This document shows, piece after piece, positions 20,078 through 27,454 of a DNA stretch of 64,000 bases. The position numbers and the translations under genes are program-made. The notes beneath the pieces were generated by a model. It made no database searches. It saw only the letters and a list, made by a program, of their open reading frames with translations, and had not been told where the DNA came from. Positions within the stretch are counted from its first letter, which is position 1; every line of letters begins with the position of its first letter. Origin of the DNA: Escherichia coli (lineage in GTDB: Bacteria; Pseudomonadota; Gammaproteobacteria; Enterobacterales; Enterobacteriaceae); the NCBI RefSeq assembly GCF_013122565.1, contig NZ_CP053258.1, one strand, 5' to 3'.

Positions 20078-23000
20078 ATGCGAGTTATCTTTCTACGCAA
20101 GGAGTATTTATCTTTACTCCCGTCAATGATTGCGTCTCTCTTCTCAGCTAATGGCATTGCGGCAGTCACTGATTCATGCCAGGGATATGATATCAAAGCG
20201 AGTTGCCAGGCCAGCAGGCAAAGCCTTTCAGGCATTACGCAGGACTGGAGTATCGCCGATGGGCAATGGCTGGTTTTTTCGGATATGACCAATAACGCCA
20301 GCGGTGGGGCCGTATTTTTGCAACAAGGAGCGAAATTTACATTATCACCAGAAAACGAAACTGGAATGACTCTGTTTGCCAATAACACCGTTACAGGAGA
20401 ATATAATAACGGCGGGGCCATATTTGCTAAAGAAAACTCAACGCTGAATCTTACTGATGTTATTTTTTCCGGTAACGTCGCAGGCGGCTATGGTGGCGCA
20501 ATCTATTCTTCTGGTACTAATGATACTGGTGCCGTCGATTTAAGTGTCACTAACGCCATGTTTCGCAATAACATCGCTAATGATGGCAAAGGTGGCGCAA
20601 TTTATACCATTAATAATGACGTCTATTTAAGTGATGTTATTTTTGATAACAACCAGGCATATACATCAACAAGTTACAGTGATGGCGATGGCGGGGCAAT
20701 CGATGTTACCGATAATAATAGCGACAGCAAGCATCCTTCAGGTTATACGATAATAAATAACACCGCCTTTACAAATAACACAGCCGAAGGTTATGGCGGG
20801 GCGATATATACCAATAGCGCGACGGCTCCCTATCTTATTGATATTTCTGTTGATGACAGCTACAGCCAGAACGGCGGCGTGTTAGTCGATGAGAACAATA
20901 GCGCAGCAGGCTATGGAGAGGGTCCTTCCACTGCGGCGGGTGGCTTTATGTATCTCGGCTTAAGTGAAGTTACCTTTGATATTGCCGACGGAAAAACGCT
21001 GGTTATCGGCAATACAGAGAATGACGGAGCTGTTGACTCTATTGCTGGTACCGGGTTGATCACCAAAACAGGTTCCGGCGATCTGGTACTTAATGCAGAT
21101 AACAATGACTTTACTGGTGAGATGCAGATTGAAAACGGTGAAGTTATCCTGGGCCGCAGCAACTCACTGATGAATGTCGGAGATAGTCATTGCCAGGACG
21201 ATCCGCAACACTGCTACGGTCTGACGATAGGGAGTATTGATAAGTACCAGAATCAGGCAGAACTAAATGTTGGCTCCACCCAACAAACCTTTGTGCACTC
21301 ATTGACGGGCTTTCAGAATGGCACTTTAAATATCGATGCTGGTGGCAACGTTACTGTTAATCAGGGCAGTTTTGCTGGCACCATCGAAGGTGCTGGTCAG
21401 CTCACCATTGCGCAAAACGGCAGCTACGTGCTGGCAGGGGCGCAGTCAATGGCGCTAACTGGCGATATAGTGGTGGATGATGGCGCGGTGCTTTCGCTGG
21501 AAGGCGACGCGGCAGATCTTGCCGCTCTCCAGGACGATCCGCAGTCGATCGTGTTAAACGGCGGTGTGCTCGATCTCTCTGATTTCTCCACCTGGCAGAG
21601 CGGTACATCATACAACGATGGCCTTGAAGTCAGCGGCAGCAGCGGAACGGTTATCGGCAGTCAGGATGTGGTAGATCTTGCAGGCGGAAACGATATGCAT
21701 ATCGGCGGTGACGGGAAAGATGGCGTCTACGTGGTGGTGGATGCGGGCGACGGGCAGGTCAGCCTGGCAAATGACAATCAATACCTCGGCACAACGCAAA
21801 TTGCTTCCGGTACGCTGATGGTGAGCGACAACACGCAGCTTGGAGATACCCATTATAACCGCCAGGTTATCTTTACTGATAATCAACAAGAAAGCGTGAT
21901 GGAGATTACTGCCAATGTCGATACTCGTTCTACAACGGCTGAGCATGGGCGTGATATTGAAATGCGCGCCGACGGTGAAGTGGCAGTTGATGCGGGGGTA
22001 GACACGCAGTGGGGCGCACTGATGGCTGACAGCAGCAGGCAACATCAGGATGAGGGTAGCACATTGACTAAAACGGGGGCGGGTACACTTGAGCTGACCG
22101 CCAGCGGTACAACGCAGTCAGCGGTACGTGTCGAAGAAGGCTCCCTGAAAGGTGATGTTGCGGATATCTTCCCTTATGCTTCGTCGCTGTGGGTCGGTGA
22201 CGGGGCAACGTTCGTTACTGGCGCGGATCAGGATATTCAGTCAATTGATGCTACTTCCAGCGGCACTATCGACATCAGCGATGGTACGGTTTTGCGCCTG
22301 ACCGGGCAGGATACTTCCGTCGCCCTTAATGCCTCACTGTTTAACGGCGATGGGACGCTGGTGAATATCACCGATGGCGTGACGTTGACAGGTGAGCTTA
22401 ATACCAACCTTGAAACTGACAGCCTGACCTATCTTGCCGACGTGACGGTTAATGGTGATCTGACCAATACGTCCGGTGCGGTTAGCCTGCAAAATGGCGT
22501 CGTTGGCGATACGCTGACGGTAAACGGTGATTACACCGGCGGCGGTACGTTACTGCTCGACAGCGAATTAAACGGCGATGACTCAGCAAGCGACCAGTTG
22601 GTGTTGAACGGTAATACTGCTGGCAATACCACGGTTGTGATTAATCCCATTACAGGGATTGGTGAGCCGACATCTACAGGCATTAAAGTGGTTGATTTCG
22701 CAGCTGATCCCACGCAGTTTCAAAACAATGCGCAGTTCAGTCTGGCAGGCAGTGGCTACGTCAACATGGGAGCGTATGACTACACGCTGGTGGAAGATAA
22801 CAACGACTGGTATCTGCGATCGCAAGAAGTAACGCCGCCATCGCCACCTGATCCAGACCCGACTCCCGATCCTGATCCTTCGCCGGATCCTGATCCAACA
22901 CCCGACCCGGCCCCTACGCCTGCCTACAAGCCAGTGTTGAATGCCAAAGTTGGTGGATATTTTAATAACCTGCGGGCGGCAAATCAGGCGTTTATGATGG

Positions 23001-23830
23001 AGCGACGCGATCACGCTGGTGGCGATGGTCAGACGCTGAATTTACGTGTTATCGGCGGAGATTATCATTACACAGCAGCGGGGCAACTGGCTCAGCATGA
23101 AGACACTTCTACAGTGCAGCTTAGCGGCGACCTGTTTAGCGGGCGCTGGGGGGATAATGGCGAGTGGATGCTTGGGGCGGTTGGTGGCTACAGTGATAAT
23201 CAGGGCGACAGCCGCTCGAATCTGACCGGAACTCGCGCCGATAACCAGAACCACGGTTATGCCGTTGGGCTGACCTCAAGCTGGTTTCAGCACGGTAAGC
23301 AGAAGCAGGGGGCCTGGCTGGATAGCTGGCTGCAATACGCGTGGTTTAGCAACGATGTTTCCGAACAAGACGATGGCGCGGATCATTACCATTCGTCGGG
23401 AATTATTGCTTCTCTGGAAGCGGGGTATCAGTGGTTACCGGGGCATGGTGTGGTGATTGAACCGCAGGCGCAGGTGATTTATCAGGGCGTGCAACAGGAT
23501 GATTTTACCGCCGCTAACCATGCGCGCGTGTCACAATCGCAGGGTGATGATATTCAAACGCGGCTGGGTTTACACAGCGAATGGCGTACCGCTGTTCATG
23601 TCATACCAACATTAGATCTGAATTATTATCACGATCCGCATTTGGCAGAAATTGAAGAAGATGGCAGCACTATCAGTGACGATGCGGTGAAGCAACGGGG
23701 TGAAATAAAAGTGGGAGTCACGGGCAATATCAGTCAGCGAGTCTCGCTGCGCGGCAGCGTGGCGTGGCAGAAAGGGAGTGATGATTTTGCCCAGACGGCA
23801 GGGTTTTTATCGATGACGGTGAAATGGTAA
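20078..23830 (+). CDS. yfaL: AIDA-I-type autotransporter adhesin
   Basis: 1250 aa; N-terminal signal; repetitive Gly/Asn/Thr-rich passenger; Pro-rich PDPDPTPDP linker; C-terminal beta-barrel domain. Confidence 0.85.
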   Translation: MRVIFLRKEYLSLLPSMIASLFSANGIAAVTDSCQGYDIKASCQASRQSLSGITQDWSIADGQWLVFSDMTNNASGGAVFLQQGAKFTLSPENETGMTLFANNTVTGEYNNGGAIFAKENSTLNLTDVIFSGNVAGGYGGAIYSSGTNDTGAVDLSVTNAMFRNNIANDGKGGAIYTINNDVYLSDVIFDNNQAYTSTSYSDGDGGAIDVTDNNSDSKHPSGYTIINNTAFTNNTAEGYGGAIYTNSATAPYLIDISVDDSYSQNGGVLVDENNSAAGYGEGPSTAAGGFMYLGLSEVTFDIADGKTLVIGNTENDGAVDSIAGTGLITKTGSGDLVLNADNNDFTGEMQIENGEVILGRSNSLMNVGDSHCQDDPQHCYGLTIGSIDKYQNQAELNVGSTQQTFVHSLTGFQNGTLNIDAGGNVTVNQGSFAGTIEGAGQLTIAQNGSYVLAGAQSMALTGDIVVDDGAVLSLEGDAADLAALQDDPQSIVLNGGVLDLSDFSTWQSGTSYNDGLEVSGSSGTVIGSQDVVDLAGGNDMHIGGDGKDGVYVVVDAGDGQVSLANDNQYLGTTQIASGTLMVSDNTQLGDTHYNRQVIFTDNQQESVMEITANVDTRSTTAEHGRDIEMRADGEVAVDAGVDTQWGALMADSSRQHQDEGSTLTKTGAGTLELTASGTTQSAVRVEEGSLKGDVADIFPYASSLWVGDGATFVTGADQDIQSIDATSSGTIDISDGTVLRLTGQDTSVALNASLFNGDGTLVNITDGVTLTGELNTNLETDSLTYLADVTVNGDLTNTSGAVSLQNGVVGDTLTVNGDYTGGGTLLLDSELNGDDSASDQLVLNGNTAGNTTVVINPITGIGEPTSTGIKVVDFAADPTQFQNNAQFSLAGSGYVNMGAYDYTLVEDNNDWYLRSQEVTPPSPPDPDPTPDPDPSPDPDPTPDPAPTPAYKPVLNAKVGGYFNNLRAANQAFMMERRDHAGGDGQTLNLRVIGGDYHYTAAGQLAQHEDTSTVQLSGDLFSGRWGDNGEWMLGAVGGYSDNQGDSRSNLTGTRADNQNHGYAVGLTSSWFQHGKQKQGAWLDSWLQYAWFSNDVSEQDDGADHYHSSGIIASLEAGYQWLPGHGVVIEPQAQVIYQGVQQDDFTAANHARVSQSQGDDIQTRLGLHSEWRTAVHVIPTLDLNYYHDPHLAEIEEDGSTISDDAVKQRGEIKVGVTGNISQRVSLRGSVAWQKGSDDFAQTAGFLSMTVKW

Positions 23831-23957: not shown

Positions 23958-24680
23958 TCACTTATTCTGCGTGTGCAGCATATAGTTCACATCCACGCCG
24001 GGGCCGAGCTTAAAGGAATTAGTGATCGGGTTGTAATGCAGCCCAGTCATATGCCGCTCTTTAAGGCTTGTCTGATCCACCCAGCCAAGCAGCTCTGCCG
24101 GTTTAATAAACTTCTTCACATCATGCGTGCCTTTGGGCACCATGCGCAAAATATATTCCGCGCCAACCACCGCCATCAGCCATGACTTGCCGTTGCGGTT
24201 AAGCGTCGAGAAAAAGACATCGCCGCCCGGTTTCACCAGTTGCGCACAGGCTCTGACCACTGACTGCGGATCGGGAACGTGCTCCAGCATCTCCATGCAG
24301 GTCACCACATCATACTGCCCGGCATGTTTTGCCGCGTGCTCTTCCACGGTTTCCTGCACGTAATCCACCTGAATGCCGCTTTCCAGTGCGTGCAGTTTTG
24401 CCACCTGCAATGGCTCAAAGCCCATATCCAGACCGGTCACCGTCGCGCCTTCGCGCGCCATACTCTCGGCCAGAATGCCGCCGCCACAACCGACATCGAG
24501 CACCTTTTTGCCAAATAAACCGCCAGCACGCTCGGCAATATAGCCCAGACGCAGCGGGTTAATGCGGTGCAGCGGTTTGAACTCACCTTCAAGATCCCAC
24601 CAGCGGGAGGCAACGGCTTCAAATTTAGCGATCTCTTCGTGGTCTACGTTATGGTTTACCGGCGATTTTTCGGCATTCAT
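23958..24680 (-). CDS. ubiG: Ubiquinone biosynthesis O-methyltransferase
   Basis: 240 aa from ATG 24680 (MNAEKSPV); SAM-binding VLDVGCGGG motif. Confidence 0.92.
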
Positions 24681-24826
24681 TGGCACTTCTACTCCGTAAT
24701 TGGCAAGACAAACGAGTATATCAGGCATTGGATGTGAATAAAGCGTATAGGTTTACCTCAATCTGCGCGGCTGTGTTATAATTTGCGACCTTTGAATCCG
24801 GGATACAGTAGAGGGATAGCGGTTAG

Positions 24827-27454
24827 ATGAGCGACCTTGCGAGAGAAATTACACCGGTCAACATTGAGGAAGAGCTGAAGAGCTCCTATCTGGATTATGC
24901 GATGTCGGTCATTGTTGGCCGTGCGCTGCCAGATGTCCGAGATGGCCTGAAGCCGGTACACCGTCGCGTACTTTACGCCATGAACGTACTAGGCAATGAC
25001 TGGAACAAAGCCTATAAAAAATCTGCCCGTGTCGTTGGTGACGTAATCGGTAAATACCATCCCCATGGTGACTCGGCGGTTTATGACACGATCGTCCGTA
25101 TGGCGCAGCCATTCTCGCTGCGTTACATGCTGGTAGACGGTCAGGGTAACTTCGGTTCCATCGACGGCGACTCTGCGGCGGCAATGCGTTATACGGAAAT
25201 CCGTCTGGCGAAAATTGCCCATGAACTGATGGCCGATCTCGAAAAAGAGACGGTCGATTTCGTTGATAACTATGACGGCACGGAAAAAATTCCCGACGTC
25301 ATGCCAACCAAAATTCCTAACCTGCTGGTGAACGGTTCTTCCGGTATCGCCGTAGGTATGGCAACCAACATCCCGCCGCACAACCTGACGGAAGTCATCA
25401 ACGGTTGTCTGGCGTATATCGATGATGAAGACATCAGCATTGAAGGGCTGATGGAACACATCCCGGGGCCGGACTTCCCGACGGCGGCAATCATTAACGG
25501 TCGTCGCGGTATTGAAGAAGCTTACCGTACCGGTCGCGGCAAGGTATATATCCGCGCCCGTGCTGAAGTGGAAGTTGACGCCAAAACCGGACGTGAAACC
25601 ATTATCGTCCACGAAATTCCGTATCAGGTAAACAAAGCGCGCCTGATCGAGAAGATTGCGGAACTGGTAAAAGAAAAACGCGTGGAAGGCATCAGCGCGC
25701 TGCGTGACGAGTCTGACAAAGACGGTATGCGCATCGTGATTGAAGTGAAACGCGATGCGGTCGGTGAAGTTGTGCTCAACAACCTCTACTCCCAGACCCA
25801 GTTGCAGGTTTCTTTCGGTATCAACATGGTGGCATTGCACCATGGTCAGCCAAAGATCATGAACCTGAAAGACATCATCGCGGCGTTTGTTCGTCACCGC
25901 CGTGAAGTGGTGACCCGTCGTACTATTTTCGAACTGCGTAAAGCTCGCGATCGTGCTCATATCCTTGAAGCATTAGCCGTGGCGCTGGCGAACATCGACC
26001 CGATCATCGAACTGATCCGTCATGCGCCGACGCCTGCAGAAGCGAAAACTGCGCTGGTTGCTAATCCGTGGCAGCTGGGTAACGTTGCCGCCATGCTCGA
26101 ACGTGCGGGCGACGATGCTGCGCGTCCGGAATGGCTGGAGCCAGAGTTCGGCGTGCGTGACGGTCTGTACTACCTGACCGAACAGCAAGCCCAGGCAATT
26201 CTGGATCTGCGTTTGCAGAAACTGACCGGCCTTGAGCACGAAAAACTGCTCGACGAATACAAAGAGCTGCTGGATCAGATCGCGGAACTGTTGCGTATTC
26301 TTGGTAGCGCCGATCGTCTGATGGAAGTGATCCGCGAAGAGCTGGAGCTGGTTCGTGAACAGTTCGGTGACAAACGTCGTACTGAAATCACCGCCAACAG
26401 CGCAGACATCAACCTGGAAGATCTGATCACCCAGGAAGATGTGGTCGTGACGCTCTCTCACCAGGGCTACGTTAAATATCAGCCGCTTTCTGAATACGAA
26501 GCGCAGCGTCGTGGCGGGAAAGGTAAATCTGCCGCACGTATTAAAGAAGAAGACTTTATCGACCGACTGCTGGTGGCGAACACGCACGATCATATCCTGT
26601 GCTTCTCCAGCCGTGGTCGCGTCTATTCGATGAAAGTTTATCAGTTGCCAGAAGCCACTCGTGGTGCGCGCGGTCGTCCGATCGTCAACCTGCTGCCGCT
26701 GGAGCAGGACGAACGTATCACCGCGATCTTGCCGGTGACCGAGTTTGAAGAAGGCGTGAAAGTCTTCATGGCGACCGCTAACGGTACCGTGAAGAAAACT
26801 GTCCTCACCGAATTCAACCGTCTGCGTACCGCCGGTAAAGTGGCGATCAAACTGGTTGAAGGCGATGAGTTGATCGGCGTTGACCTGACCAGTGGCGAAG
26901 ATGAAGTAATGCTGTTCTCCGCCGAAGGTAAAGTGGTGCGCTTTAAAGAGTCTTCTGTCCGTGCGATGGGCTGCAATACCACTGGTGTGCGCGGTATTCG
27001 CTTAGGCGAAGGCGATAAAGTCGTCTCTCTGATCGTGCCTCGTGGCGATGGCGCAATCCTCACCGCAACGCAAAACGGTTATGGTAAGCGTACCGCAGTG
27101 GCGGAATACCCAACCAAGTCGCGTGCGACGAAAGGGGTTATCTCCATCAAGGTTACCGAACGTAACGGTTTAGTGGTTGGCGCGGTGCAGGTAGATGACT
27201 GCGACCAGATCATGATGATCACCGATGCCGGTACGCTGGTACGTACTCGCGTTTCGGAAATCAGCATCGTGGGCCGTAACACCCAGGGCGTGATCCTCAT
27301 CCGTACTGCGGAAGATGAAAACGTAGTGGGTCTGCAACGTGTTGCTGAACCGGTTGACGAGGAAGATCTGGATACCATCGACGGCAGTGCCGCGGAAGGG
27401 GACGATGAAATCGCTCCGGAAGTGGACGTTGACGACGAGCCAGAAGAAGAATAA
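24827..27454 (+). CDS. gyrA: DNA gyrase subunit A
   Basis: 875 aa; [15 protein letters not shown]; acidic C-terminal tail. Confidence 0.97.

Follow-up and report, generated by a model that had tools for sequence, protein, structure and literature searches.

The initial annotation of the DNA analysed here, a 64-kb stretch of the E. coli chromosome (the window), described in the autotransporter gene yfaL a Pro-Asp-Pro linker encoded by repetitive DNA that could be prone to slippage. This raises two questions: what role such a tract could play in an adhesin, and whether its length changes from strain to strain.

The proline-rich junction of YfaL

The features of the locus on which the analysis rests are as follows.

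20078–23830, + strand: yfaL/ehaC coding sequence, 1250 aa, a type Va AIDA-I-family autotransporter adhesin (ORF list, translation, Pfam, RefSeq annotation)
22457–22789, + strand: autochaperone domain (AC_1, PF18883, E=6.7e-18), aa 794–904, capping the beta-helical passenger at its C-terminal end (Pfam, structure alignment, AlphaFold2 strands)
22835–22921, + strand: acidic proline-rich linker PPSPPDPDPTPDPDPSPDPDPTPDPAPTP, aa 920–948 (sequence, composition, entropy, AlphaFold2 coil, site of the linker-length indels)
22850–22895, no strand: five GATC (Dam) sites at 22850, 22868, 22874, 22886 and 22892 (GATC scan of the window)
22868–22878 and 22886–22896, + strand: two copies of the 11-mer GATCCTGATCC, the longest exact direct repeat in the tract, at a spacing of 18 nt (exact-repeat scan)
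22943–22987, + strand: alpha-helix after the linker, aa 956–970 (AlphaFold2 helix at fragment residues 163–177; the 4MEE alignment starts at fragment residue 164)
23042–23761, + strand: 12-stranded outer-membrane beta-barrel (translocator), aa 989–1228 (PF03797, E=5.8e-33; 12 long AlphaFold2 strands; 4MEE, E=1.4e-34)

The yfaL open reading frame covers 3,753 nt on the + strand of the window. Pfam assigns Chlam_PMP and PATR (passenger repeats), AC_1 and Autotransporter domains to its product, and the N-terminus, MRVIFLRKEYLSLLPSMIASLFSANGIAA, was judged by eye to be a putative Sec signal peptide. The adjoining ORFs, at 23958–24728 (−) and 24827–27454 (+), correspond to ubiG and gyrA; in the E. 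coli loci that we fetched, ubiG and then gyrA likewise lie downstream of yfaL, with ubiG 96–98% and the 5' end of gyrA 98.6–99.9% identical to the window. Over the full gene the window's yfaL is 82–95% identical to the fetched alleles, with a best match around the linker of 96.1%, and the allele is an unusual one for E. coli. Locus and near-full-length identity together indicate orthology to E. coli yfaL. When a 701-nt query around the tract was searched against complete E. coli genomes, 5,419 of 5,426 matched, and the RefSeq label at the matches listed was 'yfaL: AIDA-I family autotransporter adhesin YfaL/EhaC'. An antisense ORF of 143 aa with a GTG start (22583–23014) overlaps the tract region and was regarded as incidental to the high GC content of the coding strand.

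The autochaperone of YfaL aligns with those of AIDA-I (4MEE) and IcsA (3ML3/5KE1) and is built of beta-strands in our structural model; these alignments, with Pfam, identify a beta-helical passenger that ends in a type 1 autochaperone. A pore helix and a 12-stranded barrel, recovered by Pfam, 4MEE and AlphaFold2, place the protein among the AIDA-I-family type Va autotransporters. AIDA-I, the prototype of the family, has homologous domains on both sides of the YfaL tract (E=1.4e-34), with chain residues 30–138 of 4MEE matching the autochaperone and 149–463 the helix and barrel. The junction between them is about 10 residues long in AIDA-I, whereas it is about 40 in YfaL, so that the Pro-rich segment of YfaL is effectively an insertion of about 30 residues relative to AIDA-I.

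The AlphaFold2 model of YfaL residues 794–1250, calculated from a 51-sequence alignment, has a mean pLDDT of 92.1 and a pTM of 0.87. In this model residues 920–948 form a coil without helix or strand, and their pLDDT of 73–82, the lowest of the model, indicates neither confident structure nor clear disorder. The coil is followed by a short strand, the helix at 956–970 and the twelve long strands of the barrel; by homology, this helix is presumably the one that passes through the pore of the barrel. The tract is thus flanked by AC_1 (794–904) and the beta-domain (989–1228), with 4MEE and AlphaFold2 in agreement, and its initial description as a linker between passenger and translocator holds. 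Judged by the model and the sequence, it would form a stalk from the base of the passenger to the pore helix.

The 29 residues of PPSPPDPDPTPDPDPSPDPDPTPDPAPTP comprise 16 Pro, 7 Asp, 3 Thr, 2 Ser and 1 Ala, against 16 Pro in the remaining 1,221 residues of YfaL (binomial P 1.7e-18). The tract contains the lowest-entropy 20-aa segment of the protein, at 1.54 bits (runner-up 2.50; mean 3.23, sd 0.28), and it is the sole tandem array that TRF reports between 20000 and 23900 at a minimum score of 30 (period 6, 8.3 copies, 67% matches). The claim that yfaL carries no other low-complexity tract is therefore borne out. The position given for it, 22840–22925, needs a small correction: the tract is real, and its true span of 22835–22921 begins about 4 nt further upstream. 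Its DNA has a GC content of 66.7%, compared with 51.2% for yfaL. The linker repeats of the window are degenerate at the DNA level, and the GATCCTGATCC pair is the likeliest substrate for slippage in this allele.

The GATC sites in the tract form the only 60-bp span with five such sites, the densest among the 317 in the window. E. coli encodes Asp more often by GAT than by GAC, and five of the seven Asp-Pro pairs in the tract are encoded as GAT-CC, which creates GATC sites. The switch mechanism of agn43 involves Dam and OxyR. The GATC cluster and the repeat slippage in an adhesin gene recall both contingency loci and agn43, which is phase-variable (PMC3764049); the GATC sites of yfaL, however, lie 2.8 kb inside the coding sequence, and GAT-CCN codon pairs account for them. 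For these two reasons a regulatory role of the cluster is unlikely.

We propose that the tract is a non-folding acidic interdomain stalk of YfaL, the length of which changes through repeat slippage. Considering the sequence comparisons and the structural model, we give this reading a probability of about 0.7.

Length variation of the linker in E. coli

Linker length was counted from Gln916 through the Pro that precedes Ala-Tyr. By this count the intact E. coli genes carry linkers of 21, 25, 27, 33, 35 and 37 aa; the 21-aa form first came to light in database proteins and later also in genomes. A protein search at 90% clustering returned mostly fragments; it contributed extra linker alleles and revealed the assembly breaks described below. 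To estimate how common each length is, we drew two systematic samples, each of 60 genomes, in even steps down the ranking of the 5,419 matches, with the following counts.

Same length as the window: sample 1, 40; sample 2, 40
18 nt shorter than the window: sample 1, 12; sample 2, 13
6 nt longer than the window: sample 1, 4; sample 2, 5
24 nt shorter than the window: sample 1, 2; sample 2, 1
12 nt longer than the window: sample 1, 1; sample 2, 0
168-nt deletion: sample 1, 1; sample 2, 1 (one strain, present in both samples)

From these samples we estimate that about two thirds of the 5,419 complete genomes have the linker length of the window, and the 33-aa linker dominates at this level across divergent allele classes. 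In the complete genomes, all linker-length differences from the window (−36, −24, −18, +6 and +12 nt) are in frame and multiples of 6 nt. In the fetched representatives these differences are located within the tract, and the 168-nt deletion has one of its ends in the linker. An alignment of 17 full-length yfaL alleles places at least 5 indel events in the 33 linker codons and 1 in the other 1,217 codons; this sole indel outside the linker, of 2 aa near residue 546, marks two passenger classes. The number of linker repeats thus varies between strains, and an invariant linker length was not found.

How the blocks are gained and lost can be read from individual alleles. In the 24-nt deletion allele (KOr021) the sequence between GATC‌C-type direct repeats, the equivalents of the GATCCTGATCC pair, has been removed. 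In the +12-nt allele a 12-nt unit repeats perfectly over 32 nt; this is a fresh, perfect 12-nt tandem duplication. The common −18-nt class, which makes up roughly a fifth of genomes, has a linker that ends in DPIP and in which the 18-nt unit TGACCCAACACCCGATCC repeats perfectly over 38 nt. A synthetic one-copy DPIP allele was used as a query for this class, and among the 60 best-ranked genomes 22 were one-copy and 11 had a span 36 nt longer, followed by 27 two-copy genomes. One, two and three copies of the 18-nt unit were confirmed in sequences whose flanks differ at 0–1 of 518 nt, and the three-copy allele has the same length as the window. The one-copy alleles occur on two sub-backgrounds, PPSPP and PPLPP, each of which is matched by a two-copy allele.

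The clearest case is provided by two O111:H8 strains, 1056-1 and TW05614, which are identical over 5,827 nt (yfaL, ubiG and the 5' end of gyrA) except for one 18-nt unit. This difference arose by recent slippage inside a single clone, and it contradicts the view that the length states do not change within clones. The perfect 18-nt tandem class behaves as a true variable-number repeat. Of the roughly 1,100 genomes in this class, only about 33 have a copy number other than two.

The K-12-type class has the length of the window and similarly degenerate repeats. It displayed no recent change in linker repeats, as the sampled alleles with at least 99% identity to K-12, 22 of 22, have the same length. 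One recent event was found on the K-12 background, a 168-nt in-frame deletion in an allele that is otherwise one SNP from K-12, and we read this deletion as having joined a copy of CTGATCCCACGC in the autochaperone to a second copy in the linker. The linker of the window lacks this 12-mer, because a Ser codon (TCG) replaces the Thr codon (ACG) of K-12. Since its repeats are degenerate and the 22 K-12-like alleles are uniform in length, the window's copy is probably far less prone to length change than the perfect-repeat class. The suggestion that the tract is slippage-prone is supported by the E. coli alleles compared, with lengths of 21–37 aa and, in one allele class, one to three copies of the 18-nt unit, and it probably applies much less to the copy in which it was first noticed.

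A surface-proximal, repeat-encoded and polymorphic region of an adhesin could also be an antigenic-variation module or a contingency locus, in which repeat number would serve immune or phage evasion, or on/off switching. Some draft, Logan and ENA assemblies do contain frameshifted linker products, which would fit such a role, but these may be sequencing errors. Among the complete genomes we found no switch of frame or of promoter spacing, every variant being a multiple of 6 nt with the frame kept, and the few perfect-repeat genomes that depart from two copies fall far below the behavior of contingency loci. The yfaL units of 6, 12 or 18 nt differ in this from contingency loci: the frame is kept and nothing is switched off. 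As all of the linker indels are in frame, they change the length of the stalk and do not turn yfaL on or off. We consider this explanation very improbable.

The tract also seems to break short-read assemblies, giving rise to many 'partial' YfaL entries. In Shigella sonnei, contigs end at the linker, at every codon across 23 codons and without IS sequence. Insertion of an IS element in the linker is an unlikely cause of these breaks, as the ends are scattered and IS sequence is absent.

The junction across the autotransporter family

Consideration of distant relatives gives insight into which properties of the tract are kept. A homolog search of 1.84 billion cluster representatives returned 611 relatives at E<=1e-30, and 149 of the best 150 were aligned; these representatives stand for clusters at 50% identity or less. 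With a Pro-rich segment defined as at least 10 aa with at least 30% Pro at the junction, 99 of the 149 homologs carry one at the same place as YfaL, and a third of the family is without. The length of the junction segment across the 149 has a median of 30 aa and a range of 8–105. In the Pro-rich segments about 40% of residues are Pro, and the next most frequent are Asp, Thr, Glu and Val. Of the 99, 94 have a net acidic charge and 60 contain at least 4 consecutive Pro-X dipeptides; the family consensus is PxPxPxP. The spacer is thus conserved as a compositional trait and not as a sequence.

Closer orthologs also differ in length. The linker is 33 aa in E. albertii and 25 aa in Escherichia sp. 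E1V33, while a Pseudocitrobacter metagenome-assembled genome (MAG) encodes one of 54 aa that consists mostly of PPx triplets. The scan of cross-species contigs used exact peptide patterns and yielded 5 loci only, which was sufficient to show length change across species. Both the spacer and length variation of this kind are ordinary for the protein family.

These comparisons bear on two further explanations. The first is that the tract aids translocation: as an unfolded segment it would form or adjoin the hairpin with which entry into the barrel/BamA pore begins, and it would prevent premature folding beside the barrel, so that the autochaperone folds outside and pulls the passenger through. 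The tract does lie between the autochaperone and the pore helix, the part expected first into the pore; it is without secondary structure in the AlphaFold2 model, its composition is kept across two thirds of the family, and the surface-display anchor YfaL 786–1250 contains it (PMC7138890). AIDA-I and about a third of the homologs, however, have no Pro-rich stretch, and the span of 17–33 Pro-rich residues within one species and 8–105 family-wide, with the frame intact, argues against precise pore mechanics. We consider such a role unlikely. The short AIDA-I junction of about 10 residues, together with the third of the family that lacks a Pro-rich segment, implies that a long stalk is dispensable for secretion and display.

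The second explanation is that the tract is a neutral indel hotspot, a tolerated spacer in which variation reflects mutation pressure from short repeats and the known recombination of yfaL. The indels are concentrated in the tract and coincide with direct repeats, as this would predict, and yfaL has been reported to be mosaic or recombining and positively selected overall, with hypervariable regions in the N-terminal half and not in the linker (PMC12175518, PMC9110714). A purely neutral spacer, however, would be expected to lose a composition of about 40% Pro and a net acidic character, which 94 of 99 distant segments retain, and the dominance of 33 aa across divergent allele classes is also against it. 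This leaves neutrality distinctly unlikely, and the stalk described above is the reading that we prefer.

Among published systems, the closest counterpart is found in the Pro-rich linkers of classical (type Va) autotransporters such as Agrobacterium Aat, which are likewise placed between a beta-solenoid passenger and a helix-plus-barrel, and are unfolded; the authors propose that the linker remains unfolded and extends reach (bioRxiv 10.1101/2022.02.15.480547). Compared with these, YfaL is the E. coli instance, and what we add is the length polymorphism within a species and the copy-number variation of an 18-nt unit in one allele class. Our literature search gave no mention of a proline-rich linker in yfaL, and Celik et al. 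(2012) refer to proline-rich passengers only. The proline-rich regions in a paper on Chlamydia Pmp proteins are not a counterpart, as they are side loops of the passenger in a different place.

A proposed extended acidic stalk

We propose that the stalk, a non-folding segment with Pro at about every second residue, connects the autochaperone, at the base of the beta-helical passenger, with the helix that threads the barrel. After secretion it would lie just outside the mouth of the barrel in an extended, polyproline-II-like form. The rise of a polyproline-II helix is about 0.31 nm per residue; the 29 residues of the window would then span a rod of about 9 nm, and alleles with 17–33 residues one of about 5–10 nm. 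Such a rod may hold the adhesive passenger off the membrane and the LPS core, with its negative charge keeping it stretched and away from the anionic surface. Blocks of 6, 12, 18 and 24 nt would be gained or lost by replication slippage, or by short-homology deletion, between CCNGAYCC-type repeats, and these direct repeats would themselves be a by-product of coding for Pro-Asp-Pro-Thr. Where composition and approximate length suffice for the protein, the DNA is free to gain or lose such blocks.

Two known proline-rich regions resemble the stalk. Region 2 of pertactin, from Bordetella pertussis, contains polymorphic PQP repeats with units of 3 aa, which have been associated with antigenic variation. 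Pertactin, like YfaL, is an autotransporter with in-frame Pro-rich repeats of varying number toward the C-terminal end of the passenger, but its repeats lie within the passenger, whereas those of YfaL are 6-, 12- or 18-nt units in the linker. The (Glu-Pro)n/(Lys-Pro)n spacer of TonB is periplasmic and belongs to an energy-transducing protein; it shares with the YfaL linker an alternating X-Pro pattern that is expected to form an extended, polyproline-II-like distance spacer, without homology between the two.

A stronger form of our proposal would make the linker an adjustable 'ruler', in which the repeat number (17–33 Pro-rich residues, about 5–10 nm) is selected to fit the depth of the O-antigen or capsule. 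We regard this as quite improbable. If it were true, the 18-nt repeat would be a tuning knob for the exposure of the adhesin and not neutral noise.

Taken together, our data describe a feature of a familiar type in a long-annotated gene, and the 18-nt copy-number variation in one allele class is a minor addition to what is known. The result carries little weight for basic biology, as autotransporters are well known to carry Pro-rich stalks, and surface proteins to vary in the number of in-frame repeats. The 18-nt repeat could be used as a fine-scale typing marker in some clones, such as O111:H8. Furthermore, YfaL surface-display constructs contain the tract, and natural alleles tolerate between 17 and 33 Pro-rich residues in it.

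Contig breaks and frameshifted products at the linker

Dozens of YfaL proteins recorded as 'partial' in the databases (proteins P0025-P0075; fetched loci L014 and L015-L018), from draft assemblies of Shigella sonnei and some of E. coli, derive from contigs of roughly 1.9 kb that end inside the linker. These ends fall at every codon across a 23-codon span, with no IS sequence present at them, and the contigs downstream of the breaks begin at the linker end (APTPAYQ). This looks like a drop-out of short-read coverage or of assembly over the linker; the breaks may instead reflect real heterogeneity in the tract. Several predicted products from Logan/ENA assemblies (proteins P0024, P0030, P0039, P0058 and P0067) go out of frame after entering the linker and reach an early stop, an example being ...PDPDPTPDQHPTRNLRLPTSRC. 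Genuine frameshift pseudogenes are one possible reading of these products, sequencing errors in the GC-rich tract another.

An Alkalicoccobacillus porphyridii assembly, from a Bacillaceae genome, includes a 252-nt contig of labelled coverage 0.84 (NZ_VLXZ01000332.1, locus L013), which codes for an Escherichia-type YfaL fragment of 95% identity ending in the linker. Its presence there is almost certainly contamination.

GATC sites and an antisense reading frame

Two features overlap the linker DNA:
22850-22895: cluster of GATC (Dam) sites, five in 47 nt, from a GATC scan of the window
22583-23014, minus strand: ORF of 143 aa with a GTG start, antisense to the linker region

The cluster is the densest among the 317 GATC sites of the 64-kb window, which holds no second 60-bp span with five. 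It arises because the Asp-Pro codon pairs are written GAT-CCN (five of the seven pairs), and is probably incidental. The cluster could nevertheless bind SeqA, or could favour MutH-directed repair of slippage loops. In our view the antisense ORF arises incidentally from the GC richness of the coding strand.

Deletion and alternative forms of the linker

One annotated allele has lost part of the linker:
Equivalent to window about 22704-22880: in-frame 168-nt deletion in yfaL of E. coli VTB97022v (NZ_CP178670.1; loci L008 and L026)

The deletion removes 56 residues from FAADPT onwards, so that the autochaperone region loses its end and the linker its start, and we read its breakpoints as two copies of the 12-mer CTGATCCCACGC. 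Elsewhere the gene is one SNP apart from that of K-12, and the deletion is therefore recent.

The allele with three copies of the 18-nt unit in E. coli OkiPb01681 (NZ_AP042510.1, locus L035) lies in a yfaL that RefSeq lists as a pseudogene ('internal stop'), the stop falling outside the 994-nt stretch fetched. In an orthologue from a Pseudocitrobacter MAG (CAJYVI010000014.1, locus L012; 64% identity), the 54-aa linker consists mostly of PPx triplets (PPDPPEPPTPPDPPAPPMPP...), followed by PDPDPTPDPTP at its end. Translation of such PPx runs would presumably depend on EF-P. Repeat type, like length, can change in the linker at the passenger-barrel junction.

Divergence and possible recombination at yfaL

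Among E. coli strains, identity to the window is 82-95% for yfaL (20078-23830) and 98.6-99.9% for the adjacent gyrA (24827-25926), with ubiG (96-98%) falling between the two. The window yfaL allele has no close match in 5,426 complete genomes, the best reaching 96.1% around the linker. Published work that describes yfaL as evolving in mosaic fashion and under positive selection agrees with this divergence.

Outside the linker, the 17 aligned alleles differ by one indel only (GD--GKDG versus GSDASQNG, window about 21710-21720, aa about 546), which divides them into two passenger classes. Linker alleles are shuffled over both classes, DPAPDPTP for example being found in each, and this sharing of the same linker allele suggests intragenic recombination in yfaL.
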